From positions 8,198 through 72,197 of the IMG/VR virus record IMGVR_UViG_3300021490_000001: a stretch of 64,000 nucleotides of DNA; one strand, 5' to 3'. Source of the stretch: a virus. Below are positions 2,591 to 57,400 of this stretch, one piece after another. Each line of letters starts with the position of its first letter. The first letter of the stretch is position 1. Under the pieces are notes generated by a model. The model had not been told where the DNA came from. It saw nothing but the letters and a program-made list of their open reading frames with translations, and made no database searches. The translations under genes and the position numbers were made by a program.

Positions 2591-2828
2591 ATGGCAGAAG
2601 ACCTAGTAAATCATCTACCTCACTATGAGAAAGGCGGGATTGAGACAATAGATTTTATTAAGGCGAAAGGATTGTATAAAGATTTCTACCTTACCCAATG
2701 TCATCAAATATATTTCAAGAGCAAAGTATAAGAGAAAGGAGCTTGAAGACCTTAAAAAAAAAGCAAAATGGTATCTAAAAAGGGCAATCTCATTATTAGA
2801 AAAAAAACTGAAACATCAGGCTCTGTAG
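2591..2828 (+). pseudogene. DUF3310-like protein, frameshifted
   Basis: DLVNHLPHYEKGGIETIDFI...NVIKYISRAKYK...EDLKK/AKWYL can only be read across two frameshifts (about 2696 and the poly-A at about 2754-2762). Confidence 0.7.
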
Positions 2829-2895
2829 TCTAGTGGACTAAGACATGGGAATAGTAGATACCCCCAAGACTCTGGTTCGAATCCAGACGGAGCCT
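2819..2895 (+). tRNA. tRNA-like gene with a non-canonical 21-nt anticodon arm; anticodon not assignable
   Basis: Acceptor GGCTCTG/CGGAGCC, D arm GTCT-AGTGGACTA-AGAC, T arm TCTGG-TTCGAAT-CCAGA; anticodon arm TGGGAATAGTAGATACCCCCA; no encoded CCA. Confidence 0.75.
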
Positions 2896-2911
2896 TTAAG
2901 AAATAGGAGGA

Positions 2912-3100
2912 ATGACTATGGCATTAACATTCGAAGAAACAAAAGAAATGGAAGAACTTAAGCAATTACACAAAAAAGAACTTGCAGAGATATCATTGCA
3001 AAATGCAAAAGAAGAACACGAAATGAAAATGAAACGACTAGAACTAATGCTTAAGATAGCACAGGCAGGTGGAATCTTTAAAGAAGAAGAAAAAAATTAA
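2912..3100 (+). CDS. small coiled-coil protein
   Basis: GGAGG RBS upstream; E/K-rich helical sequence. Confidence 0.65.
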   Translation: MTMALTFEETKEMEELKQLHKKELAEISLQNAKEEHEMKMKRLELMLKIAQAGGIFKEEEKN

Positions 3101-3117
3101 ATACACAAGCGATTAAA

Positions 3118-3477
3118 ATGGATTTTCTAGTGTATCTTGATTATGTCGATTTAGACCTACAACCCAAGCTAATTGATAAGGATGACAAGAATCGATATGC
3201 GCGAGCTTCTTTTCTGTCAATTGATAAAGTTTTTAAGGTAAAGAAGTCTTTATATTTGTTTGAAATTAACGAAAAAATTGTCATAATCGATACTGCCAGT
3301 ATGAAAGCACACTGTTCCTGTATGGATTTTGCTAGCAGACGACATAGTAAAAATCGATACTGCAAGCATATTTATCGTGCAGTAAGATGGTTAGTTGAGT
3401 CAAAAGATAAATCCATTAAGATAACTTCAAATCAATTTGTTATTGAAAGATTCTCTAATCTCAAATTCCTTCGTTAG
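3118..3477 (+). CDS. SWIM zinc-finger protein
   Basis: CSCMDF...CKHIY (CxC-x(n)-CxH). Confidence 0.75.
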   Translation: MDFLVYLDYVDLDLQPKLIDKDDKNRYARASFLSIDKVFKVKKSLYLFEINEKIVIIDTASMKAHCSCMDFASRRHSKNRYCKHIYRAVRWLVESKDKSIKITSNQFVIERFSNLKFLR

Positions 3478-3795: not shown

Positions 3796-3994
3796 TGATA
3801 ATGCAAGGACATTAGCTATTGAGATATTGGATCTCTTCGAGGACTTGCTAAATCAACATGATATAACTATTCCTAGTCCAGATAGATGTGGAAACCAAGA
3901 AGAAGCCAGACTGTATGGAGATATATACTATGCTCTTGAAGATCAAATAACAGACCTAATAAAAAGAAACAAGAATCTTAAAAATAAAGTTTAG
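3788..3994 (+). CDS. hypothetical protein
   Basis: 68-aa ORF overlapping the upstream stop. Confidence 0.6.
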   Translation: MNDDNARTLAIEILDLFEDLLNQHDITIPSPDRCGNQEEARLYGDIYYALEDQITDLIKRNKNLKNKV

Positions 3995-4004
3995 TGGTAG
4001 TCCA

Positions 4005-4406
4005 ATGAAAGAAGTTATAATCTTAAAAGAGTCAACTGGAGTTATTCGAGAAGCTAGAGATATCTTCAAAAATATCAAGGAAATGAATATAGATTATGCT
4101 CAAGAGAACTTTATTGTCTTTTTCCTTGACTCCAAAAATAAGATTATCAATGCTGAAGTATTATTTAAAGGTGGCTTAAACTCTTGCCTAATCGATCCTA
4201 AGACAATATTCAGAATAGCATTATTACATAACTCAAATGGGATAATCGTGGCTCACAATCATCCCTCTGGAGATCTAACGCCCTCTGATGAAGATAAGAA
4301 TATCTATGAGTCACTACAAATGTCAGGAGAGTTCTTAGATCTCCGTTGTATGGATTCGATCATATTCAATGAAAAAGAATATTATTCAATGAATTCCAGC
4401 AAATAG
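4005..4406 (+). CDS. RadC-like JAB/MPN domain protein
   Basis: QENF...HNHPSGDLTPSDED...D, the RadC JAB signature. Confidence 0.9.
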   Translation: MKEVIILKESTGVIREARDIFKNIKEMNIDYAQENFIVFFLDSKNKIINAEVLFKGGLNSCLIDPKTIFRIALLHNSNGIIVAHNHPSGDLTPSDEDKNIYESLQMSGEFLDLRCMDSIIFNEKEYYSMNSSK

Positions 4407-5629: not shown

Positions 5630-5815
5630 ATGTTTGGAGTAAAACAGAAAATTAAATGGTTAAGTTCGAATACAACAATGGATATAGAGAAACAATTCGA
5701 TGAATTCTTCGAATCTACAATAGTAGCTGGAATACTCGAAGTAACTCCTTTGGTTAAAAAAGATGGAAGAATATCTAAATTCATGCTTGTAGTTCGATAT
5801 ATACCAAAAAGTTGA
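5630..5815 (+). CDS. hypothetical protein
   Basis: GAGGTGA RBS upstream. Confidence 0.6.
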   Translation: MFGVKQKIKWLSSNTTMDIEKQFDEFFESTIVAGILEVTPLVKKDGRISKFMLVVRYIPKS

Positions 5816-5819
5816 TCTT

Positions 5820-6149
5820 ATGACTTTGTGTATCAAATGCAGAAGGAATCCAAGAGTAAAAGGAAGAAGAGTATGCCAAAAATGTATAAATAAATCTAAA
5901 AGATTACTTTATGCAACTGATAAAGAATTTCGAGAAAGAGAATCGAAACGAAATATAAATTATCAGCGTAAAAAGATTAAGAACGATCCTTCCTTTAGAA
6001 AACACAAGAGAGAGTATACTGCTTACTGGAGATCTAAACATAACGATAGATATATTTTCCTTCAGGCAAGATCTGCATTCAATCGATTAAGCCCTTATTA
6101 CCGTAAGAAATTTCTTAAGGAATTTAACTTACATTTGAATATACTTTAA
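5820..6149 (+). CDS. basic zinc-finger protein
   Basis: CxxC...CxxC N-terminus, R/K-rich. Confidence 0.6.
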   Translation: MTLCIKCRRNPRVKGRRVCQKCINKSKRLLYATDKEFRERESKRNINYQRKKIKNDPSFRKHKREYTAYWRSKHNDRYIFLQARSAFNRLSPYYRKKFLKEFNLHLNIL

Positions 6150-23802: not shown

Positions 23803-26800
23803 TTAGTACAGAATTGTGCATATGTCACAAGCTGGTTCCATGACTAATGCTGCATGTCCCCATCCTATAATCTTTATTGCTATTTCATTATTGGAATTGT
23901 CTTTGTAGGAATCTGTCCAGCAACGCATAGAGACGCCACGTATTTGTCTTGTGGCAAGCTGTTTATTTACTTCGCTGTTGGTTATCTTGAATTTTATTAT
24001 CATTGCTTTGAGATCATCGTCCCATCGAGAGCTAAGTATCTTGCCTACCTGATGGATTACATCATCCGAATGATCTCTTACTATATTAAGTCCATTTGGT
24101 TTTGGTGCATTCTTTACGACCTCCTCAGAATAAGTAATGCCATTCCATACTCCAGGAGCAAATCCTATTGCTTCCCATGTATCATTAGTTTCCTTGCTTA
24201 ATTCTCTTATTGTAAAGGAATGGCTTTGCCATGCTGTAGTCTTAGGAGCATCTGTATCTTTTTTTAGAATCCAAGTTTTGTTTTGTCTTGTGGCTGTATA
24301 TATTCCTTTAAGTTTCCCTGAAGTAAACTTAATTTGTTTAAGATCAGATGTGTCTTTCAATATAGTTGCTGTTCCACTTGTAAGTTTTCGTATCCATGCT
24401 GGTGTATTCTTAGTCCGATTTTCTGGATGACCTGGCTTCAGTTCGCCTGAATATGTGAACATATCTATATTTTTATCATGTCTTAATATTCCTGCCACTG
24501 TGTTTGTATCTATTAGATTGTGCTGTAGGATAAAATGACTGTATGTGTCTTTGCCTGGTTCTTTTATCCTTAAGTCATACACTTGTTTTGATGGACCTTT
24601 TCTTATTACGACTGGCCCTTTCCAATATCTATGCTGAAGGACATATTTAGCAGAGTTAGCATAATTTAAGGCATTTGTATTTATCTCATTAGAGAATCCG
24701 AAAGTGTCATTATCATTCGCTAACATCGAAACAGATCTACCTTTTGTTAATCTCTCTATCCATGATTCCAAATGAGGTTCAAGCTTAATTGATTCCTCGC
24801 TGAAATTCGTAATTAAGAGATTAGGTATATTATATTTTACTGCATTTTGTAAATTGGTTTTTAGGCTAGCAGTTTTGGCTTCTTGCGTCACAACATTTCT
24901 TGCATCTAGGATCAAGACATCTATGCCATTTCCTTTAAGTAATTCTTCATTTGAGTGATCTAATGCATAAGCGAATGAGCAAGGGCCTATATCTATTTTT
25001 AATGCAGTCGCTTCTTTGCCAATTGCTTCTATCTTAACTCCTGTAAGTGTTAAATGTCTATCAAATACATGGATCTCATTAGGATAGTTTAATCTTTTGA
25101 GTTCCGCTTCCATTTCCTTAGTCCCATAAATTGGGATGTCTATTTTATTCTTAAGTGCCCCAATATGTTTTGGGCTTATTCCTGTAAGGATTATTGCATC
25201 GGGATTGTCTTCTTTGAGTTTGCCTAAATAATCGATTCCTGCATTTATCCTAATTTTTATTTTATCTGTAGATAATAGCGCGCTTGTATTTAGTTTATGA
25301 GTTTTTGATTGCTTTCCTGAGCCTAAAGTACCATACCAGAAGATAGTAGCATTGGAGATATTATAGTCTATCAACATAGCTTTCTGTATAGGAAACGGTT
25401 GTTTCTTGATAGCATTAATCAGATCTAATCTTATTTGCTTTCTTTTACTTCGTTCATCATAATTCCAATACTGATATTGCTTTGGAATCTTAGATGCTAA
25501 TTTCTTAGGGATCGCTTTTATTCCTTTCTCTGGCACATAGTCTTTGTTTATACTTCTTAGTGTAAGCATATAAGGAGGAGAATTAGAAGGAAAACCCATC
25601 CATGTGAAATATCCTTCTGGTGTTTTTTTCCATTCGGATTTGTTCTCTAATTCTCTGAATGAGAACTTACCATTGAGTAACTTTCCATCGAAAAAGTATT
25701 CATGATATTGGCTTTTTTGCGCTCCATACTGCACAGTGCCTTTATCTACTATTATAAACTGTCCTGCTTCCTTTTTTGTTGCGCCTATTTCACCTGGTTC
25801 AACCCATCCTTCTGCAGTAAGCCATTCAATGGGTTCTACTTGTTTTAGCTTGCAGTTGAACTTAGTTAATGGATTGTGGAACTTGTCATCTACTATAGGT
25901 TTTATTTCTTTATTGTACAATTCTTTAGCATCTTCGAAGGAAGTAGCATCTCTTGAGAATCCTTTGGGAACAAATAAAGTATATCCTATTAGGTGTTTGT
26001 CGCTAAATTGTATGCGAAGATCGAGATGTACGCTACGCCCACGTGCGTGTGCGTGTATTACATAATTATACGTTTTAGATTCATCTGGTATTTTAAGGTA
26101 GACATCAGAGTAATCGAGTTTCTCTTCTGTTTTTTCCAGATCGAAGAGTGAACGCGCTGATTTTGGCATTCTCTTCTTTTCTTCTGTTCCTGTTGTTTCT
26201 TGAACTATTTCTTTTACTCGTTTGATAGAGAATGCATCTTCTTTTCCTCTATGTCTTATGACTCTTGGACTCCACCAGTTGAACCATAGTTTTCCTTTAT
26301 CATCATATTGTGATATTTCTACTACTATTACTTCTATTGTTTCTCCTTCTTTTGCGTCTATATTTGTATTAAATGTTCTGCCTATGTATGCTTCATCTTT
26401 AGGAGAACCAACAACACAGTCGTAGAAGAATGTATTTTCTGTGCCAGCTACTTTATGTTTCTTTTTTATTCTGGCAAAGATCGAAACTTCATTTTTATAT
26501 TTAAGGACTTTATCTGTCTTCCCATCAAAATCATAAATGTGTGAAGGCATCTTGATCATAGCTCCTTCGCTTCCTGGAAGTTTTGATTTCTTTTCTATTG
26601 CATTCCTTACATCATCAAGATCTTTAGCTATAATAGGATCTGTGTGAAATATATTTTTTCCCTTAAACTTGTAGATATATTCCAATCTTATGGAGTATGG
26701 CTCTTTAACTAATTCTTTTCCATTGAAATAAAGCGTATCGTATACATGCGCTTGGAGATATTTCTCATCTGGTGATACTTCTTTTGAATGAATAATGCCT

Positions 26801-29547
26801 GACGTGACTGCCCTTGGCTGATGTTTTCCATCTTTATATAATTCTATTTCAAATTCCGCTTCAAAGTCACCGTTTATTTTAAGGAACTGCTCCTTTAGGG
26901 TAGGAACCTTATTGGTAATAATATTTCCTTCATCTGACCATATATTTATTTTTTCATTAATTTTATGGACTTGGGCTCTTATGCCATCATATTTCTTTTC
27001 TATGTATAATCCATTTTCTTCTAATTCTTTTTCCCATTCTGGTTTGGATTTGATTACATTGATTACACTCAAAGGAGTATATATCTCTTCTTTTGATCGC
27101 CCATGAGTTGGCTTAGGCATTGTATGGAATTTTCCTAACTTGAAACCTGGGTGGGATAAATTTTTTGGACTGACTAATTCCCATTGGATTCCGATACTAC
27201 CTAGACATTCCATTGTGTAATCTGTTAGATCAGAAGCTATGAGTAGGCTTACGGAATTTTCATCCAATAGCTTAAGGACATCTTCACGTATATTAGAGGT
27301 TATTTCTTGTTTGGTTCCATCAGGGCATACCAGAAATTTAGCAGTAGCAAAAGATGCAAGATTACCTGCCTTATCGATTAACTGCCACTTTGCCTCTGTA
27401 TTATCGACCAGGCTCATTTCATGTAATCTATGGTCTGTATTTGGAACAAGTTCTAAATCCCAAATTGGGTAATGATTAGTAAATGGGCCATGAAGTGTAT
27501 CATACAAAAAATGCACTCTTGGTCTTAATTTTTCAGGAAGTGCACGTAAGATTCTGAATTTAAGTGCTCTGTCTTCATTTGGGTTTTCAGGTTCCTCTTT
27601 TTTAATAAGTATGTCTATATCGCCTGTTGTACCTTCTTTCTCATGGGTTGCAACGCCACCAACTATATATACATACGGTTCAGCTAATTTAATATTACCT
27701 TGGAAATGTGGCAAAATATCCTTGATAAATATTCGTTCTCCATCTACTTTGCCAGATGGATTTACCCGCACATAACGGAAGTTAGTTAAGTCTCTTGTTC
27801 GTTTATGTAATGCAATGATTTTATTATAAAATTGTCTGGAATATTTTTTCATTTTATTAGAGTGAAATTTTGTTCCTCTTCTTGTGAGTTCTTTGTATAC
27901 TTTAAGTCCTATGTCTGTTAATTCTTTTAGTGAATATTTTGTCTTCTGGCCTTTTAGTGCATTTACATATTCGTTTGATAGGAATCTCCAATCATCTTTT
28001 AGTTGTACTGTTTTTCTTGATTTTGGAGTATAATCGGATATGTTTTTTGTATATTGTAGATTCTTTTCTCTTATGAATGGCAGAATCGAATCTTCTGGCT
28101 TCATTGTTCCAAGATATTTTAGTGTGGCATCATCGAGTGCATCTTGATAGTGGTGCGTGAAATGTCTCCTTTCAAATTCCTTAGTTATTCTATAATGTGC
28201 GTTTACTAGATCAGCCATCTCTTTTCCGCTTGTTATACCATGCCTTAGATAGTTTCCAAAAGCAACATGGAGTTTGAAATGAGTTCCAATTACTTGAGAA
28301 TCTGTATATCCTTCAAGCAATTTTGTAGTTATGCTTGGCGTCTTGATTAAATCCTGTTCAAGATGAGCATCAAGAGAGTCTATCTTATTGATTTTTATTT
28401 TATGATCTAAATAAGGAACAATTTTATTATGAGTTGATATTATTTGCTCCATAGTCCAAGAAGCGACATGTTTCCCTTCGCTGAATTTTCTTGCCATTCT
28501 GTGTAAGTTATAATGCACTTCATATAATGAGTCCTCATTCATTAAAGACGGTTCTGTTAAATTTTTCATTAAGTAACGTGGGAATATTAGCTTATACCAT
28601 TTCTTAGAGTCTTCTTTTTTGTATGTTGAAGAGGTATCCTTTAGAACAAATCCTTCAATGGACTTATTCTCTGTGGCTTTAATTATGTCCTTAAAATTCT
28701 CATAGGATTTTATGGTGAGATATTTTACTTTTGAAATGTATTTTTTATCGCTTACCTTTTCAAGTTTCATTTTTCGCTCATATAATAACTCTTCTGTATG
28801 ATAAGTTCCGTTTGTATTTAGTATGTCAAATACCTTTACCCTTAATGATTTATCTGGTGTCGTTATGTCTTTGTTTGAAATTATCGAATATACATCTTTT
28901 CCTGTATCTGAGATTAGTTCTCCATCGAGGATTAATATGTCATAGTTTAATTGCTTTACTTCATCTAAAATGTGCTGAATTTTATTATTTGGAATTCTAT
29001 TTCCAAAAAAAGTATATGCAGAAACTTTGTTTAGGTCCTTGTGTATTTGTATTCTTATTCCATCTTCTTTCTTTTCAAGAATAAGATTAGCGAAATCTAA
29101 GTCTTTCATGTCTTCATAGCAGAAGAATTCGTTTGATATGTTGTTTATCTTATCCTTAAATGGCTTAATGGGCTGAACAAATTCTATATTCGTGCTTGTA
29201 AAGTTATTGAATGCAGGAATGTCAGCATAAAAACCTTTCTCTAAGTTGGCGTTTATTTTCACCGGTGCAGAGAACTTGAAGATAGATTTGATTGCATATT
29301 GATAAAAGATCTTGGTCTTTTGCCTGAATTCCTTTTTAAGATTATATGTATAAATTGCTTGTTGTAATTTGCATTCTTTAGGGGTGCTTAGTGAGAGTAT
29401 AGCTAAAGCATGTTTATTTTTTACAAATACTAAGTCTTTGTTTATGGCTTTTCGAGAATATATTTTGGAAATAATCTCTTCTTTACCATTCAATCGATTT
29501 TGTACAAGTTGAAAAACTGTGTTGTCTATTCCTATCATAATTTTCAC
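23803..29547 (-). CDS. 1914-aa multidomain head protein: two ATP-dependent DNA ligase domains, nucleotidyltransferase, two LigD phosphoesterase-like domains, degenerate MBL-like segment, C-terminal prohead protease-like domain
   Basis: KEDG...DGE...FDIL...EGFVLK; GGVAT...GDIDILI; KYDG...YDTL...EGAMIK...KYK; HAHARGRSVHLDLRI; QVYDLRI; GVWNG...DH...RGVSM...ALV.EPAC. Confidence 0.8.
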   Translation of the reverse strand: MKIMIGIDNTVFQLVQNRLNGKEEIISKIYSRKAINKDLVFVKNKHALAILSLSTPKECKLQQAIYTYNLKKEFRQKTKIFYQYAIKSIFKFSAPVKINANLEKGFYADIPAFNNFTSTNIEFVQPIKPFKDKINNISNEFFCYEDMKDLDFANLILEKKEDGIRIQIHKDLNKVSAYTFFGNRIPNNKIQHILDEVKQLNYDILILDGELISDTGKDVYSIISNKDITTPDKSLRVKVFDILNTNGTYHTEELLYERKMKLEKVSDKKYISKVKYLTIKSYENFKDIIKATENKSIEGFVLKDTSSTYKKEDSKKWYKLIFPRYLMKNLTEPSLMNEDSLYEVHYNLHRMARKFSEGKHVASWTMEQIISTHNKIVPYLDHKIKINKIDSLDAHLEQDLIKTPSITTKLLEGYTDSQVIGTHFKLHVAFGNYLRHGITSGKEMADLVNAHYRITKEFERRHFTHHYQDALDDATLKYLGTMKPEDSILPFIREKNLQYTKNISDYTPKSRKTVQLKDDWRFLSNEYVNALKGQKTKYSLKELTDIGLKVYKELTRRGTKFHSNKMKKYSRQFYNKIIALHKRTRDLTNFRYVRVNPSGKVDGERIFIKDILPHFQGNIKLAEPYVYIVGGVATHEKEGTTGDIDILIKKEEPENPNEDRALKFRILRALPEKLRPRVHFLYDTLHGPFTNHYPIWDLELVPNTDHRLHEMSLVDNTEAKWQLIDKAGNLASFATAKFLVCPDGTKQEITSNIREDVLKLLDENSVSLLIASDLTDYTMECLGSIGIQWELVSPKNLSHPGFKLGKFHTMPKPTHGRSKEEIYTPLSVINVIKSKPEWEKELEENGLYIEKKYDGIRAQVHKINEKINIWSDEGNIITNKVPTLKEQFLKINGDFEAEFEIELYKDGKHQPRAVTSGIIHSKEVSPDEKYLQAHVYDTLYFNGKELVKEPYSIRLEYIYKFKGKNIFHTDPIIAKDLDDVRNAIEKKSKLPGSEGAMIKMPSHIYDFDGKTDKVLKYKNEVSIFARIKKKHKVAGTENTFFYDCVVGSPKDEAYIGRTFNTNIDAKEGETIEVIVVEISQYDDKGKLWFNWWSPRVIRHRGKEDAFSIKRVKEIVQETTGTEEKKRMPKSARSLFDLEKTEEKLDYSDVYLKIPDESKTYNYVIHAHARGRSVHLDLRIQFSDKHLIGYTLFVPKGFSRDATSFEDAKELYNKEIKPIVDDKFHNPLTKFNCKLKQVEPIEWLTAEGWVEPGEIGATKKEAGQFIIVDKGTVQYGAQKSQYHEYFFDGKLLNGKFSFRELENKSEWKKTPEGYFTWMGFPSNSPPYMLTLRSINKDYVPEKGIKAIPKKLASKIPKQYQYWNYDERSKRKQIRLDLINAIKKQPFPIQKAMLIDYNISNATIFWYGTLGSGKQSKTHKLNTSALLSTDKIKIRINAGIDYLGKLKEDNPDAIILTGISPKHIGALKNKIDIPIYGTKEMEAELKRLNYPNEIHVFDRHLTLTGVKIEAIGKEATALKIDIGPCSFAYALDHSNEELLKGNGIDVLILDARNVVTQEAKTASLKTNLQNAVKYNIPNLLITNFSEESIKLEPHLESWIERLTKGRSVSMLANDNDTFGFSNEINTNALNYANSAKYVLQHRYWKGPVVIRKGPSKQVYDLRIKEPGKDTYSHFILQHNLIDTNTVAGILRHDKNIDMFTYSGELKPGHPENRTKNTPAWIRKLTSGTATILKDTSDLKQIKFTSGKLKGIYTATRQNKTWILKKDTDAPKTTAWQSHSFTIRELSKETNDTWEAIGFAPGVWNGITYSEEVVKNAPKPNGLNIVRDHSDDVIHQVGKILSSRWDDDLKAMIIKFKITNSEVNKQLATRQIRGVSMRCWTDSYKDNSNNEIAIKIIGWGHAALVMEPACDICTILY

Positions 29548-47713: not shown

Positions 47714-48193
47714 TTAGCTCCTCTCAATGCAAATCGCCAAGAGGATTATGAATAATAGTATCGGAATCGCCTGTGAAGCTTGAGATATATCGCCTGCTAG
47801 GTCTATCAGTGTTAGGATACAGATCAGACACACTCCAAGGGTTGACATCCAACTATTCATATTAACCACAATACTAACCACAATCTGCGCATCTGGTCAG
47901 CCAGCATTTTTATGAACAGGACACCACACATTTCTTTATTCATTTAGATTCCTCCCAGCGCTCCCAGCGCATATGCTATCACCATGCAGAGTGTTAAGAG
48001 TAGCATAAGAAGCATCGCCTTGTAAAGTTTAGGTATGTCGCTGATGGCTATGTCTATCAGTGTTAGGATACAGACTAGATACCATCCAATGACTATCAGG
48101 CAATTAATCATATTAACCACAATCTGCGCATCTGGTCAGCCAGTATTTTTTATGAATAGGACACCACACCAGGCCTTTAATCTCTTTCTCCAT
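47714..48193 (-). repeat. tandem duplication (about 240-bp period) of a two-mini-gene unit
   Basis: Shared blocks TCTATCAGTGTTAGGATACAGA and AACCACAATCTGCGCATCTGGTCAGCCAG...AGGACACCACAC at about 47802-47930 and 48053-48170. Confidence 0.8.
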
Positions 48194-48272
48194 AGTTAGA
48201 ATTGGTGAGTTTTCTTTATATATCTATGGACTATCAGAGACTATGTATCTGTTAGGATTTAGTCTAATGCTC

Positions 48273-48362
48273 TCACTTGCATGGTCCTAGTCTTCGTCCG
48301 CCTTTTCTTCTGCTTGGATATCTGCTTCTTTTTCTTGGACCTCTTCCATCTCTGTCTGGCAT
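48273..48362 (-). CDS. 29-aa basic peptide, DUF5320-like
   Basis: MPDRDGRGPRKRSRYPSRRKGGRRLGPCK; GAGGTGA RBS and TATA-like box upstream. Confidence 0.55.
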   Translation of the reverse strand: MPDRDGRGPRKRSRYPSRRKGGRRLGPCK

Positions 48363-48426
48363 AGTGTCACCTCTGCTTATCTTGAATGTTAATTATTGGT
48401 ATAGTTTCTTTATATGTCTGTGTATC

Positions 48427-48540
48427 CTCTCAGAGTCCTTTCCTAAAAATTTGGGTGTGCTCAAGTGAGTTTGTACTCATTGGGTTTGTACTCCTTGGGT
48501 TTGTACTCTCAGAGACCATTCTTGAAATTTTGGTGTGCTC
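48427..48540. repeat. three G(A/G)GTTTGTACTC repeats (15-bp period) between two ~35-bp direct repeats
   Basis: Copies at 48467, 48482 and 48497; flanks CTCTCAGAG...TGTGCTC at 48427 and 48506. Confidence 0.8.
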
Positions 48541-48789
48541 GACGAGTGACATATAGTAATAAGTAGAAAAAAGTTGACTGAATTCTGAGAGATGTATAGT
48601 CTATAGTAAGTACATATCACATTGCGCGCGCATGCATAGCGATCCATTGGTTCATTGGTTCCGTTGTTGTAGTGGGCATTGGCGCATTTAATTAATTCCA
48701 GGCGCTAAGGCGCTTAGTGAATGGGGGGACACCCCCCGTAACCCCCCCGATAAAAGTTGTCCTCAGCAAGTGTCTCGTTCGTGGTTAAG

Positions 48790-49090
48790 AGGTTGGTTCT
48801 CACTTGATGCGTTGGTGAGTGAGAACCAATTTGCATTCATGAATGGGGCGGTGCTGAAAGCAGACCAGAGCCCGGGGCCCCTACCCCAAACTCTGGCAGA
48901 GCGGGCGCTAAAGACGCCCGCATATTTATCATCGGAGAGGGGCACCTTTAATTGAGGTTTGCGGTTGGCAGTTCTATTAAATATAAACCGCAAACCTCAT
49001 TAACCCATTCATTCATGCAAACTGCGCTCCGCTTGCCTCTATCTGGTAATCTCTCTCTCACAAAAAAAATTGGTGAGAGAGAGAGGTAAA
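48790..49090 (+). ncRNA. candidate large multi-stem structured RNA or ssDNA element
   Basis: At least six helices, including 48793-48805/48817-48829, 48830-48847/49004-49021 (long range), 48901-48921 and 48953-48966/48986-48999; strand tentative. Confidence 0.5.
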
Positions 49091-49112
49091 AACCTCTCGG
49101 GAGGTGTTCACC

Positions 49113-49214
49113 ATGAGTTTAAAACAGAAAACATATGAACTGCAGATGAAATTAATTCGTCTGCAAAAGGCGCACGCAATGCGTCACACAGATTATGAGC
49201 TGGAGGTTGATTAA
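49113..49214 (+). CDS. 33-aa peptide
   Basis: GGAGGTG RBS; MSLKQKTYELQMKLIRLQKAHAMRHTDYELEVD. Confidence 0.5.
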   Translation: MSLKQKTYELQMKLIRLQKAHAMRHTDYELEVD

Positions 49215-49815
49215 TATGTTATCTCCACAGCAGAAGCTACAGAACAGGTTGAATTCACTTCTGCCTGATTTGAGGAAAACGACCAGGTTTAGCCCTGAGT
49301 CGATCAGCTTCCTTCGGGTGGCTGTGCAGATGGGTGAACCGTCTGCTGTTCAGCGTGCGCTGGACAGGTTGGAAGCACTGGATGACTTTGTCATGGGTGC
49401 TACTGGTCTGGCGCAAAAGGTGGAGAGTTTTACTTTGTATGACCTCCATCTAGACCGAATCGAAGCTGAAGCAGACTCGATAAGATCTGCTCTTCTTACC
49501 TCTCCTGAGAAGGCTCAGGCAGAGGCTGAGAAGGAAGACAGACTTCAGAAGATGTCTGGGTTGGATTATTCAGACATCTACGGACAAGAACCCTCATGGG
49601 AACCTGTTGGAGCTACATCGAGAGCTCAGGCTTTCCGTCAGGGTAAACTCCAGTCTCGAACAGCTGAGCGGGACAGAGAGTTCACCGAGATGGAGATTAT
49701 GCATGAGCAGAGTCTGTTTGATTCTGCTTATCCGCATGAGACGCTTGCGGATAGAGAAGAGCGTCTCAAAAAGGAAGAAACTCCGACATTGGAGTCATTC
49801 CTAAGTTTCTTGTAG
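49195..49815 (+). CDS. hypothetical acidic helical protein (putative early gene)
   Basis: Visibly more GC-rich than the rest of the window; likely start ATG 49216 after GGAGGT; followed by hairpin plus poly-T. Confidence 0.7.
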   Translation: MSWRLINMLSPQQKLQNRLNSLLPDLRKTTRFSPESISFLRVAVQMGEPSAVQRALDRLEALDDFVMGATGLAQKVESFTLYDLHLDRIEAEADSIRSALLTSPEKAQAEAEKEDRLQKMSGLDYSDIYGQEPSWEPVGATSRAQAFRQGKLQSRTAERDREFTEMEIMHEQSLFDSAYPHETLADREERLKKEETPTLESFLSFL

Positions 49816-49846
49816 GGCTTGTCCCTACTTTCTTTTTTTTTATATT

Positions 49847-49990
49847 TAGGCGCTCTATGCAATTGGTGAGCGCGAATAAAGGCTTTTGGTGTACTGCACA
49901 CGGAGGAGGTTGGTGTCCGCAAGGGCAAATAAAGTTTTCCCCTCCGGGTCGCTAGCGCTAAAACTTTATAAGCCCTTGCTCTTCCGTGTA
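49847..49990 (+). promoter_or_regulatory. structured element A: small hairpin plus long hairpin containing BRE/TATA-like sequence
   Basis: GCAAGGGC-AA-ATAAAGTTTT-loop-AAAACTTTAT-AA-GCCCTTGC; core shared with element B. Confidence 0.7.
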
Positions 49991-50019
49991 GGGTTAAAGA
50001 AAGTCAGGAGGAGGTCTGA

Positions 50020-50310
50020 ATGAATATTAAATTTATACATAATTGGGGCGGAAAGCTGGATGCAAAGAAATTCACAACCATACGGAGAAATCCGTATTGG
50101 TTAGATAAACGTGGAGAGATTCATGTTTATCTAAAGGGAGAATATTATGCTAAAAGAGAACTCGTTGATGTTATTAGAGTTCCTTTTGGCACAATCGACA
50201 GGTCTGTTGTTGAAGCAGATACAGGACTGTCTTATGAAGCTTCTCTTAAGATTTTTGAGAGCTTCAGAATAAAAGAGGATACGATGGTTTGTATTCTCTT
50301 TTTTGAATAA
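50020..50310 (+). CDS. ASCH/PUA-like domain protein
   Basis: IKF...KKFTTIRR...EADTG; GGAGG RBS. Confidence 0.6.
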   Translation: MNIKFIHNWGGKLDAKKFTTIRRNPYWLDKRGEIHVYLKGEYYAKRELVDVIRVPFGTIDRSVVEADTGLSYEASLKIFESFRIKEDTMVCILFFE

Positions 50311-50464
50311 CTTTTCTTTTTTTTTCTCCTGTGGAGGTCACCTTGACTTCCACTGGAAAAAAACGCGCCTGCCTTGGTTATATTGGGGAAGGCAGGCGCT
50401 CTACACTTCCACAGGAAGTGAAGGTGCCAGCCAGTGTGACCTACATTTCCTGTGGAACTTGAGT

Positions 50465-50612
50465 TAGGCGCTCTATGCAATGGGTAAGCGCTTAACCTAC
50501 CAACCATACATACCTTACCTACCCATCGGAGATACACGTTGGTGAGCGGGATGAGGCATATAAAGTTTTCCCCTCCGGGTCGCTTCGCTAAAACTTTATT
50601 AGCCCCACCCGC
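50465..50612 (+). promoter_or_regulatory. structured element B, homologous to element A
   Basis: TAGGCGCTCTATGCAAT hairpin; ATAAAGTTTTCCCCTCCGGGTCGCTTCGCTAAAACTTTAT core with a different but still pairing outer stem. Confidence 0.7.
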
Positions 50613-50688
50613 CAGGGAGAGCACATAACATTTAAGAATTAAATGTGTATGGTGTTTACTCACCCTCTGCACATTTAGATAAAGGAGG

Positions 50689-50910
50689 ATGAGTGATATG
50701 AGTGATATATTAGAAAATCTTCAGCACAATAACTATGGTTATTGTGATTGTGGATTGAGATTAACGCTTCTCGTAAGAGAGGCGGGTGTGTCTTCCACAT
50801 ACCCACAGGAGGGCTGGAAAGTGTACGATCATAAGGTGATGTGTTCTTCCTGTGATGTAGAAGAAATTAGGCACCTTGAAGAAGAAGGGTGGTATGTGGT
50901 AGGCTGGTAA
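50689..50910 (+). CDS. small zinc-binding protein
   Basis: CDCG...CSSC; GGAGG RBS. Confidence 0.6.
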   Translation: MSDMSDILENLQHNNYGYCDCGLRLTLLVREAGVSSTYPQEGWKVYDHKVMCSSCDVEEIRHLEEEGWYVVGW

Positions 50911-51299: not shown

Positions 51300-51478
51300 A
51301 TTAGTATATAAGATAGTATATAGTATATAGTATGTATATGTTATGTATATGTTATGTATATGTTATGTATATGTTATGTATACAGTATATATAGTATATA
51401 TATAGTATGTATATATATAGTATGTATATATATAGTATGTATATATATAGTATGTATATATATAGTATGTATATAGTA
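51300..51478. repeat. AT-rich tandem repeat tract (TATGTATATGT x4-5; AGTATGTATATATAT x4-5)
   Basis: Read directly; almost no C on the plus strand. Confidence 0.9.
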
Positions 51479-51616
51479 CCTACCTTATAGAGTATGTCAT
51501 ACATATAGGTAGAGTAGAGTAATGTTGAGGTGGGGGGTAACCCCCCACATTCTTGCGCTTATTGATGTACTCAGTAAATCGATAAGCATATAAAGATAAT
51601 AGTACACTTTTCTTGT

Positions 51617-51889
51617 ATGAATTCCAGAAAGACGCTTCAAATTGATGAAGACCTAAAAATGCGCTTTGATAAAATCAGAGGCAGTAGCGCCAACAGCAAA
51701 ATGGCACTATTGCTGGATGTATACACTAAAAAGATAGCAGAAGAAGACAATGTATACAGATTAATCAATGCGCACATGATAGACTTAAAAGGACAGCTCA
51801 ATTCATATCACAAAGATATTAAATCCTTAAGTGAGAGGATATACCAACTAGAACAAAACATTAGAGGTAAAATAGAAATGTTAAGATAG
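51617..51889 (+). CDS. ribbon-helix-helix-like regulator with coiled coil (paralogue 1)
   Basis: KTLQIDEDLKMRFDKIRG.S.N.KM..LL. Confidence 0.65.
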   Translation: MNSRKTLQIDEDLKMRFDKIRGSSANSKMALLLDVYTKKIAEEDNVYRLINAHMIDLKGQLNSYHKDIKSLSERIYQLEQNIRGKIEMLR

Positions 51890-51965
51890 CTATAAACCCT
51901 TGCGCTTATGCAAGTAGTAATACCAAATCGATAGCTATATAAAGAATTAGTATTAAAATATAGAC

Positions 51966-52253
51966 ATGGTTATTCAAAAACACATAGTAGTCTCTGAAAC
52001 GATCTGGAATTCATTTCAGAAAATCAGAGGCAAGAGCCACAATGACAAAATGCTCAATTTGCTAAATAGTACTACCAAAACAGTAGCAAAGGAAGAGATT
52101 ATTACTAAATTATTAACTGATCATATGGAAGACATTAAAACAATCCTTGAAAGGCAAAATAATATCATAGAATCTCAAGCTAGAGACATACAGAATTTTC
52201 TCGATAAAGCTGGATCTTTAATGAGCTATATCGAGAATCATACTGGATATTAG
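51966..52253 (+). CDS. ribbon-helix-helix-like regulator with coiled coil (paralogue 2)
   Basis: KHIVVSETIWNSFQKIRGKSHNDKMLNLL; upstream region duplicated from paralogue 1. Confidence 0.65.
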   Translation: MVIQKHIVVSETIWNSFQKIRGKSHNDKMLNLLNSTTKTVAKEEIITKLLTDHMEDIKTILERQNNIIESQARDIQNFLDKAGSLMSYIENHTGY

Positions 52254-56506: not shown

Positions 56507-57400
56507 ATGACTTTCCATAAATATCCTAAGATTTATCGAATTGGATCTGACGAAACTAAAGAACTAATAACTAGTCCTACTGACAAACTCTATGTAGAAG
56601 AAAAATTGGACGGTGGAAATGCCAGATTTATGGTAAAGGATAAAAGGATAATCTTTGGAAATCGAACTAAAATCATTGATGATACCACTAGAGGTAGTAA
56701 TAAGATATGGTATAATCGATGGACTACATATATAACAAATCTGCTTAAAGATAACGATGTGCCTGAAGATTTAATCTTCTATGGAGAAGCAATGTTTGAA
56801 CATAGCATTAACTACGATTTTAAGAAACATCCACCATTTATTGGATTTGATATTTTCGACTTAAAGACTAATAAATTTGTAGATTATGGATTTAAAGTTA
56901 GCATGTTTAACTCACTTGGTATTGAACCTGTTCGTTTAATCGAGATAACTACTCCTAGAAAATTTACAGAAGAAGATATTGGCGCTTCTTCTTATTATTC
57001 AGGAAAGTGTGAAGGATATGTTATTAAAAACTACAAAACTCAGGTATTTGGAAAAATAGTACGAAAAGAATTCCAAGAAATAAATAAGAAAATATTTGGT
57101 ATGAGTAAGAAAGAAGCTAGAAAATTAGGAAATGACTCTGAAATATTTGTAGTTACATATTGTCCAAATGCTAGAATAAATAAACACATATTCAAGCTTC
57201 TTGATAAAGGTAAAAAACTCGATATGAGCTTAATGAAATATCTACCTAAAAGCGTTTGGGAAGATATAATCAATGAAGAAGCTAAAACGATATTACGCTC
57301 AAATCTAACTCTTAATTTAAAAGATATTAGGATCAAAGTAACTAAACGATGTAAAATATTACTTGAACAAATGATCAAGAATAATTACTTAAATTCATAG
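56507..57400 (+). CDS. ATP-dependent RNA ligase, Rnl2-like
   Basis: FHKYPKI, EEKLDGGN (motif I), YGE, GFDI, EGYVIK, KIV...F.E; helical C-terminal domain and no OB fold. Confidence 0.85.
   Translation: MTFHKYPKIYRIGSDETKELITSPTDKLYVEEKLDGGNARFMVKDKRIIFGNRTKIIDDTTRGSNKIWYNRWTTYITNLLKDNDVPEDLIFYGEAMFEHSINYDFKKHPPFIGFDIFDLKTNKFVDYGFKVSMFNSLGIEPVRLIEITTPRKFTEEDIGASSYYSGKCEGYVIKNYKTQVFGKIVRKEFQEINKKIFGMSKKEARKLGNDSEIFVVTYCPNARINKHIFKLLDKGKKLDMSLMKYLPKSVWEDIINEEAKTILRSNLTLNLKDIRIKVTKRCKILLEQMIKNNYLNS

Follow-up and report, generated by a model that had tools for sequence, protein, structure and literature searches.

Genomic setting of the two repeat copies

A non-coding repeat made of two parts is present in two copies, referred to here as copies A and B, near the start of the rightward gene block of a viral genome. 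The window that we analyzed is a stretch of 64,000 nt corresponding to bases 8198–72197 of a 72,197-bp IMG/VR virus record (IMGVR_UViG_3300021490_000001), and coordinates are those of the window unless stated otherwise. The record is classed as presenting direct terminal repeats and as 100% complete, and we measured a terminal overlap of 127 nt. The genome has a G+C content of ~33% and encodes a tail tube protein (PF18906), a Mu-like portal, an HK97-type major head protein, and a large terminase; to judge from these genes, it is a tailed, double-stranded DNA virus. The sequencing runs that contain the stretch (11 rows from 10 studies, one row being possibly the source of the record) are labeled hydrothermal vent, marine sediment, or marine metagenome; none of the 12 runs listed is an RNA run. 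Late genes are oriented leftward from ~47.3 kb and early genes rightward from ~49.1 kb. Both copies lie no more than 1.5 kb into the rightward block, and the right end of the record is ~14 kb away.

Copy A is preceded by the end of the upstream transcription unit, a terminator-like site (49812–49841, plus strand) where the hairpin GTAGGGCTTGTCCCTAC is followed by a T-rich tail that includes nine T (49833–49841). Downstream of copy A, the open reading frame list contains a 96-aa gene (50006–50310 with its RBS, plus strand), whose RBS AGGAGGAGGT is at 50006–50015 and whose ATG is at 50020. This gene presents a weak ASCH-like match that falls under the Pfam cut-off. It has three homologues of equal length (83–94% identity) and is, on sequence grounds, a real gene. 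One of these homologues is found on a 32,311-nt contig, and a homologue of the upstream gene is likewise on a contig of that length, presumably the same one. Directly after the 96-aa gene, a run of nine T (50317–50325, plus strand) presumably represents a terminator. Copy B is followed by a small Cys-rich gene (50684–50910 with its RBS, plus strand). The listed frame starts at 50689, but GGAGG at 50684–50688 abuts this ATG, so the ATG at 50698 (70 aa) is the likelier start. These two genes bear out the original prediction that a short, RBS-led gene lies downstream of the elements. Because each element comes after a nine-T run and before a gene with a strong RBS, a promoter must lie inside each gap. 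Terminator-like signals are also present on the leftward side, with one site at 49796–49770 and a hairpin followed by seven T at 50399–50357 on the minus strand (an 11-bp G+C-rich hairpin at 50365–50399), so that each element is bracketed on both strands. Hairpin-plus-T terminators are in excess (11 relative to 3.0 ± 1.8 expected). The gaps of this region present G+C contents of 0.47, 0.47, and 0.43, relative to ~33% for the genome, and are three of only six gaps among 37 with a value of at least 0.40.

The surrounding control region contains several other repeated or structured sequences. Two direct repeats of ~250 nt (47714–48170; 77-nt core at 81% identity) each cover a small hydrophobic minus-strand frame of 55 and 58 aa, and these frames may encode paralogous membrane proteins heading the leftward block. 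A 431-nt G+C-rich non-coding segment (48680–49110) is strongly folded relative to shuffled sequences (z −8.8 on the plus strand and −7.7 on the minus strand), with a long-range pairing of 21 nt (48827–48847 with 49004–49024) that encloses several hairpins. It has no Rfam match and could be a new RNA gene or a part of an origin. An A+T-rich tandem array of ~13 units with periods of 11 and 15 nt (51312–51490) could correspond to iterons or to an unwinding element. Finally, the only two G6-N3-4-C6 hairpins of the genome (48723–48750 and 51532–51546) are both located in the control region.

Other features of the genome were recorded. A tRNA-like gene at 2818–2896, assigned to Tyr(GTA) by ARAGORN, is odd: its acceptor stem is 8 bp long, its anticodon stem contains an A.A mismatch, and the anticodon is not preceded by U. 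The sequence also falls under the threshold of the Rfam tRNA model. A 1,914-aa protein of the structural module (23803–29547) contains an ATP-dependent DNA ligase domain (E 1e-40), and a separate RNA ligase gene is found at 56507–57400. The first 8 kb of the record (192–2506; 5660–6037 of the record) encode an amidoligase_2 with a LIM-like zinc finger, adjoining a class-II glutamine amidotransferase, and a Tad2-like protein, i.e., a Thoeris anti-defence domain protein. One early protein of 624 aa has no Pfam, PHROG, or PDB match.

Sequence and symmetry of the repeats

The repeat consists of a 28-nt dyad block (block 1) and a core of ~55 nt, and exactly two copies were found in the 72,197-bp record. 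They are direct repeats confined to two intergenic gaps, upstream of genes. The original prediction had described two intergenic elements with a common small hairpin and a common core, which is what we observed. Block 1 (copy A, 49846–49873; copy B, 50464–50491; both plus strand) forms a GCGCTC/GAGCGC stem with a 12-nt loop and is 93% identical between the copies. Its 17-mer TAGGCGCTCTATGCAAT occurs at 49847 and 50465, relative to 0.13 occurrences expected (two were reached in one of 100 shuffles). The core (copy A, 49924–49975; copy B, 50555–50605) appears in the repeat search as 30 nt at 97% identity and 20 nt at 95% identity. Its 25-mer ATAAAGTTTTCCCCTCCGGGTCGCT is found at 49929 and 50560, both on the plus strand; allowing up to three mismatches, it has two matches in the window and two in the whole record, and none in 100 shuffles. 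With the same tolerance, the central 15-mer of the core has two matches relative to 0.11 expected. Over the 45–55 nt that separate block 1 from the core, GTTGGTG alone is common to both copies. No sequence is common to the copies to the right of the core, and conservation reaches leftward (GTTGGTG and block 1). The distance from block 1 to the core differs by 13 nt between the copies and the core contains a 1-nt indel. Coding through the elements was discarded in view of these length differences and of the frames over the copies, which are in different phases on both strands.

Two short words recur around the elements. AGGCGCT, which is also part of block 1, is present six times in the genome, including five times on the plus strand at 48700–50466, and five of the seven occurrences of TTGGTGAG lie at 48202–50539. 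This distribution points to putative regulator sites spread across the control region.

We searched for the repeat in other sequences. Exact core words gave no match in viral contigs for either word (0 and 0). The core 18-mer yielded 61 loci in metagenome contigs and 45 in genome contigs, all attributable to chance, with the arms present in none of the 106 matches. A gapped pattern made of the arms only was found at no fewer than 115 loci (116 matches), and none of the 40 most G+C-rich centers inspected resembled the core or its flanks. The block-1 16-mer was found at nine loci, all unrelated. A blastn search against phage records returned no match, and scans guided by the proteins of the neighboring genes identified no relative bearing the element. 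The whole analysis of the elements is thus based on two copies in one genome. A CRISPR-like solitary repeat and an H/ACA or C/D RNA were also considered for the elements and dropped.

In both copies the core is part of a long dyad. The dyad of copy A extends over 49898–49989. Its arms (49929–49938 and 49960–49969) pair perfectly over 10 bp around a 21-nt center (49939–49959). A 2×2 A/A loop separates them from an outer stem of 8 bp (49919–49926 with 49972–49979), and a further stem of 10 pairs, including one G.T (49898–49907 with 49980–49989), is found beyond a one-sided loop of 10–11 nt. The dyad of copy B (50538–50612), with the conserved GTTGGTG just before it, has its arms at 50560–50569 and 50590–50599 around a 20-nt center (50570–50589). 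Its outer stem (50546–50557 with 50602–50612) is made of 10 Watson–Crick pairs, one bulged A, and one A.C mismatch, which becomes G.U when read on the other strand. The perfect pairing of the 10-bp arms that had been predicted is therefore seen in both copies, and so is the prediction that the outer stems are unlike in sequence yet remain paired. A single pair of the 10 in the inner stem is G-C. The hairpins are more stable than expected on both strands, whether folded as RNA (z −3.9 to −5.3; zero to one of 300 shuffles as good) or as DNA (z −4.8 to −5.8; none of 200 shuffles as good). The whole elements of 151–163 nt are modestly structured (z −1.9 and −2.1; five of 200 shuffles as good in each case), and RNAalifold, run on the two copies only, added little. 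As it is very improbable that, in both copies, unrelated flanks would pair by chance beside the arms, either pairing or dyad symmetry is under selection.

The arms resemble archaeal promoter boxes facing outward. In copy A, the rightward box is TTTATAAG (49965–49972) and the leftward box is TTTATTTG (complement of 49926–49933); in copy B, these are TTTATTAG (50595–50602) and TTTATATG (complement of 50557–50564), respectively. In archaeal promoters, the transcript starts ~23–25 nt past the TATA box. The box at 49965–49972 ends 47 nt upstream of the ATG at 50020, so a start 23–25 nt further on would leave a leader of ~23 nt containing the RBS. The rightward box of copy A thus seems ideally placed for the gene at 50020. 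In copy B, ~95 nt separate the rightward box from the likelier start codon (50698), and a second small palindromic A+T-rich box at 50627–50645 could serve this gene instead. According to PMC11065993, strong promoters follow a rule of a TTTAWATA box preceded by G (−6) and A (−3). Relative to this consensus as given there, the minus-strand boxes match at 7/8 positions in copy B and 6/8 in copy A, and the plus-strand boxes at 6/8 in copy A and 5/8 in copy B. Both minus-strand boxes present G at −6 and A at −3 (GGAAAAC followed by TTTATATG in copy B and by TTTATTTG in copy A), whereas the plus-strand boxes present A at −3 without G at −6. By sequence, the minus-strand boxes are a better fit to this rule than the plus-strand boxes. 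The original prediction had read the 3' arm as BRE plus TATA. Its position before the gene at 50020 agrees with that reading, but its sequence does so only in part, with 6/8 and 5/8 matches, and the prediction had missed that the 5' arm provides an equal or better outward box on the minus strand.

The virus does not use the arm motif as a general promoter signal: 69 matches with up to two mismatches were found relative to 94 expected. A motif sampler applied upstream of 42 genes returned A-rich runs only and no promoter motif. As regards bacterial signals, we found no sigma-70 hexamers in the dyad stem and no −35/−10 pair within the dyads or close to them; the 17 sigma-70-like sites represent no enrichment relative to the 16.6 expected.

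An ORB-like cluster and the domain of the host

Between copies A and B lie four ORB-like dyads of the form TTCCAC(A/T)GGAA, at 50326–50336 (minus strand), 50348–50358 (plus), 50407–50417 (plus), and 50447–50457 (minus). The exact motif TTCCACWGGAA occurs three times in the 64-kb window, and all three occurrences fall within the 110-nt stretch 50348–50457. The Pyrococcus ORB1–3 and mini-ORB oligonucleotides carry the same dyad, in which TTCC and GAA are invariant, as reported in PMC1904270; one of the ORB-like copies matches the ORB3 oligonucleotide given there at 16 of 19 positions. Clusters of mini-ORBs have been used to call origins in Thermococcales (PMC4640148). The cluster at 50326–50457 is probably an Orc1/Cdc6-type replication origin. 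No Orc1/Cdc6 initiator gene was recognized in the virus.

ORB-like inverted-pair arrays were also found in three other tailed-virus contigs (2822–3149, 3808–3853, and 3974–4052). In these arrays the dyad sequence varies from pair to pair and is complementary within each pair. All three adjoin runs of 8–9 G, A+T-rich DNA, and terminase or portal genes. A strict ORB-pair pattern was present in one of 301 genomes of one archaeal phylum and is uninformative on the host.

The domain of the host is decisive for the interpretation of the boxes, as a BRE/TATA sequence is meaningful only with an archaeal host. Compared with 50,697 phage records, the portal matched a single one, that of Halorubrum tailed virus 27 (22.8% identity, E 9e-6). 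The best matches of the head protein are Bacillus phages in 21 of 25 records, and it also matches Methanobacterium virus PhiF1. Several genes would suit a bacterial host (Tad2-like, RadC, amidoligase with GATase, and WG-repeat), as would the excess of hairpin-plus-T terminators. Two paralogous genes starting at 51617 and 51966 have no RBS and share an upstream block (AAATCGATA..TATAAAGA) with a TATA-like box. In both genes, 20 nt separate the end of this box from the ATG, a geometry that corresponds to leaderless mRNAs of archaea. A dehydrogenase-like gene compared with a protein atlas gave no informative clue to the host. Overall, these sequences make an archaeal host likely, with some room left for a bacterial one.

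Interpretation and comparison with known systems

The reading that we favor, although tentatively, is that the two copies represent paralogous divergent promoter/operator cassettes acting as duplex DNA. They would be control regions for a block of early genes close to the origin, in a tailed virus that probably infects an archaeon. Each of the long dyads would consist of back-to-back BRE/TATA-like boxes, provided by the 10-bp arms, around a G+C-rich conserved spacer of 20–21 bp that would constitute a putative regulator site. The right-facing box would direct the mRNA of the RBS-bearing small gene and the left-facing box a short non-coding transcript through block 1; in copy A, this transcript would end at the terminator-like site at 49796–49770, and in copy B it would cross two ORB-like boxes and end at the hairpin followed by seven T. 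Block 1 would act either as another binding site for a protein or, within the leftward RNA, as a hairpin. The presence of conservation to the left of the core, and its absence to the right, fits a functional leftward unit and thereby a divergent promoter pair.

On the same reading, the elements would be bound as ordinary duplex by TBP/TFB and dimeric regulators, and the dyad symmetry of the outer flanks would reflect symmetric protein binding that diverged between the copies, with no need for folding. In phage immunity regions, paralogous operators diverge while each stays symmetric. Since a symmetric dimer needs two matching half-sites, co-varying outer arms do not require folding. Two observations count against a symmetric protein: the outer arms of copy B differ by one base in length, and the outermost stem of copy A is offset by 10–11 nt. 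Such irregularities would be tolerated more easily by a hairpin. The 47% G+C of the gaps would also be less usual for promoters than for structured RNA.

The candidate regulators are the paralogues at 51617 and 51966 (90 and 95 aa; 51533–52253). They have no family match and no match to a PDB fold. The first has two distant relatives only among 1.8 billion representatives, and its structural model presents one short and one long helix (pLDDT 83). A by-eye guess of a ribbon-helix-helix protein for 51617 was dropped, as no PDB fold match supports it. The host domain, the regulators, and the activity of the boxes as promoters, leftward or rightward, are all inferred from sequence. If this reading is correct, a vent-dwelling, probably archaeal tailed virus would join the few in which early promoters and operators can be read from intergenic repeats, and the two small genes behind the repeats would be immediate-early candidates. 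This would be the class in which anti-defence genes occur, by analogy with PMC11065993. The design is unusual, with outward boxes inside a long dyad, co-varying outer arms, and ORB-like boxes next to it, and would offer a clean case for testing whether promoter elements of archaea can function in a folded form, as DNA or as RNA.

The difference in arm length, the one-sided loop, the G.U-type pairs, and the 47% G+C are easier to reconcile with a folded nucleic acid, and for this reason two readings based on folding were kept. One of them, which we consider unlikely, is that transcripts initiated upstream or on the opposite strand include the dyads, which would act as RNA hairpins, as a leader or a processing/stability element of the small genes or as members of a small RNA family. 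It would account for outer stems that differ yet pair in both copies, for the hairpins exceeding shuffled sequences, and for the G+C-rich gaps; the neighboring segment at 48680–49110 is also strongly folded, and the CCCCTCC within the conserved loop is complementary to the downstream ribosome-binding sites. Each copy further contains one G.U-type pair, on the plus strand in copy A and on the minus strand in copy B, so that this evidence points to both strands for such an RNA. However, no Rfam family matched the elements at the gathering threshold, and the 15 sub-threshold matches all had E ≥ 0.69. The T runs close upstream should block read-through, and block 1 of copy B has no conserved promoter-like box before it. 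Moreover, the A/U-rich inner stem would be odd for the RNA of a vent organism, and the z scores of the whole elements are weak.

Less probable, in our judgment, is a bacterial host in which the dyads would be operators bound by a repressor of the phage or by some other regulator, the likeness to TATA being a coincidence of A+T-rich arms. Accessory genes of kinds common in bacteriophages, the enrichment in hairpin-plus-T terminators, and the capsid matches, mostly to Bacillus phages, are all consistent with such operators. On the other hand, the dyads lack a −35/−10 pair in or near them, and sites of this kind are not enriched in the genome. The ORB-like boxes, a portal matching only a haloarchaeal virus, and the two RBS-less paralogues with their common TATA-like box also argue against this reading.

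Slightly less credible still is the second folding-based reading, in which the copies would be origin-linked DNA hairpins: the strands would fold once the adjacent ORB-type origin unwinds and would serve as a signal for loading, priming, or transcription. The idea of the original prediction, in which single-stranded DNA regains a BRE/TATA duplex by folding into the stem, is included here. The position of the copies on either side of the ORB-like cluster is in line with this view, as are the folding of both strands as DNA, a region crowded with inverted pairs, and the arrays of other viral contigs, which are complementary within pairs. But the copies are direct repeats and form no mirror image about the origin, and no primase or polymerase was recognized. 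Extrusion from the duplex would have to open 60–90 bp around 20–21 unpaired bases and a 2×2 mismatch, and would be costly. We know of no archaeal folded-DNA promoter of this type, and a literature search for one found none. In a more specific proposal, which appears highly unlikely, each strand folds when the Orc1-type origin opens, and the stem, as a restored BRE/TATA duplex or as some other recognition surface, attracts the transcription or priming apparatus of the host to single-stranded DNA; if true, it would couple early transcription to the start of replication and be the first such signal in archaea. The original prediction of an archaeal promoter is retained only in part. An archaeal setting is plausible and the nine-T runs demand a promoter, but the need for folding is unsupported. 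A single-strand or cruciform promoter fits poorly with elements ~14 kb from the right end of a tailed double-stranded DNA virus, with a 20–21-nt unpaired center, with an inner stem of one G-C pair in 10, and with the failure to recognize a polymerase among the proteins scanned.

It is very improbable that the repeat is a small mobile element of palindromic type or a site for cassette recombination: two dispersed copies with terminal inverted repeats do flank a small gene, but there are two copies only, with no visible target-site duplication, no recombinase recognized nearby, no copy in any collection scanned, and a conserved center between variable ends. Integron attC sites have conserved ends, a variable center, and an integrase nearby. 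An attC identity was rejected on this reversed pattern of conservation and on the lack of a recognized recombinase.

Hairpins that bear promoter information in their stem or loop are known from other systems. Frpo/ssi elements act upon the entry of single-stranded DNA, with −35/−10 bacterial hexamers formed in the stem, and the hairpin promoters of phage N4 have stems of 5–7 bp and loops of 3 nt and are used by a virion RNA polymerase. The present elements share with them the general likeness, but no sigma-70-like pair is found in the dyads of this tailed double-stranded DNA virus, and the stems are 18–30 bp long around a center of 20–21 nt. An N4-type virion RNA polymerase was not found either: the two virion-module proteins of 1.9 kaa present ligase and lectin domains and no polymerase. 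As for the archaeal ORB and mini-ORB motifs, the likeness (a TTCC...GGAA dyad) belongs to the neighboring cluster at 50326–50457 rather than to the two elements.

The closest parallels are intergenic repeats of archaeal viruses. The intergenic repeats of halovirus HF2 (class I, 58 bp; class II, 29 bp) carry promoters, and this virus also has a complex bidirectional promoter region (PMC8707807). Like the elements described here, these repeats are restricted to intergenic sequences, are repeated in one genome of an archaeal tailed virus (the host being predicted in our case), and present an A+T-rich TATA-like motif beside conserved flanks, upstream of genes. In contrast to our elements, which are known from the sequence of one genome, the HF2 repeats are backed by reporter assays and primer extension and are conserved in related viruses; their description in PMC8707807 mentions no long dyads with outer arms that vary from copy to copy yet remain complementary. 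Archaeal viruses also share regulatory motifs of early (anti-defence) genes, some with inverted repeats over the BRE that were interpreted as a repressor site (PMC11065993). Those motifs resemble ours in conserving 30–100 bp around a BRE/TATA core, in preceding small single genes, and in being repeated. They differ in that they come from viruses of Sulfolobales and have near-consensus boxes, whereas here the gene-side boxes are weaker, an inverted duplicate is present, and the copies are two. By place and composition, the elements appear to be of the kind of the HF2 repeats and of these early motifs, and what seems to set them apart is the inverted duplication of the box, the co-varying outer arms, and their position on either side of ORB-like boxes.
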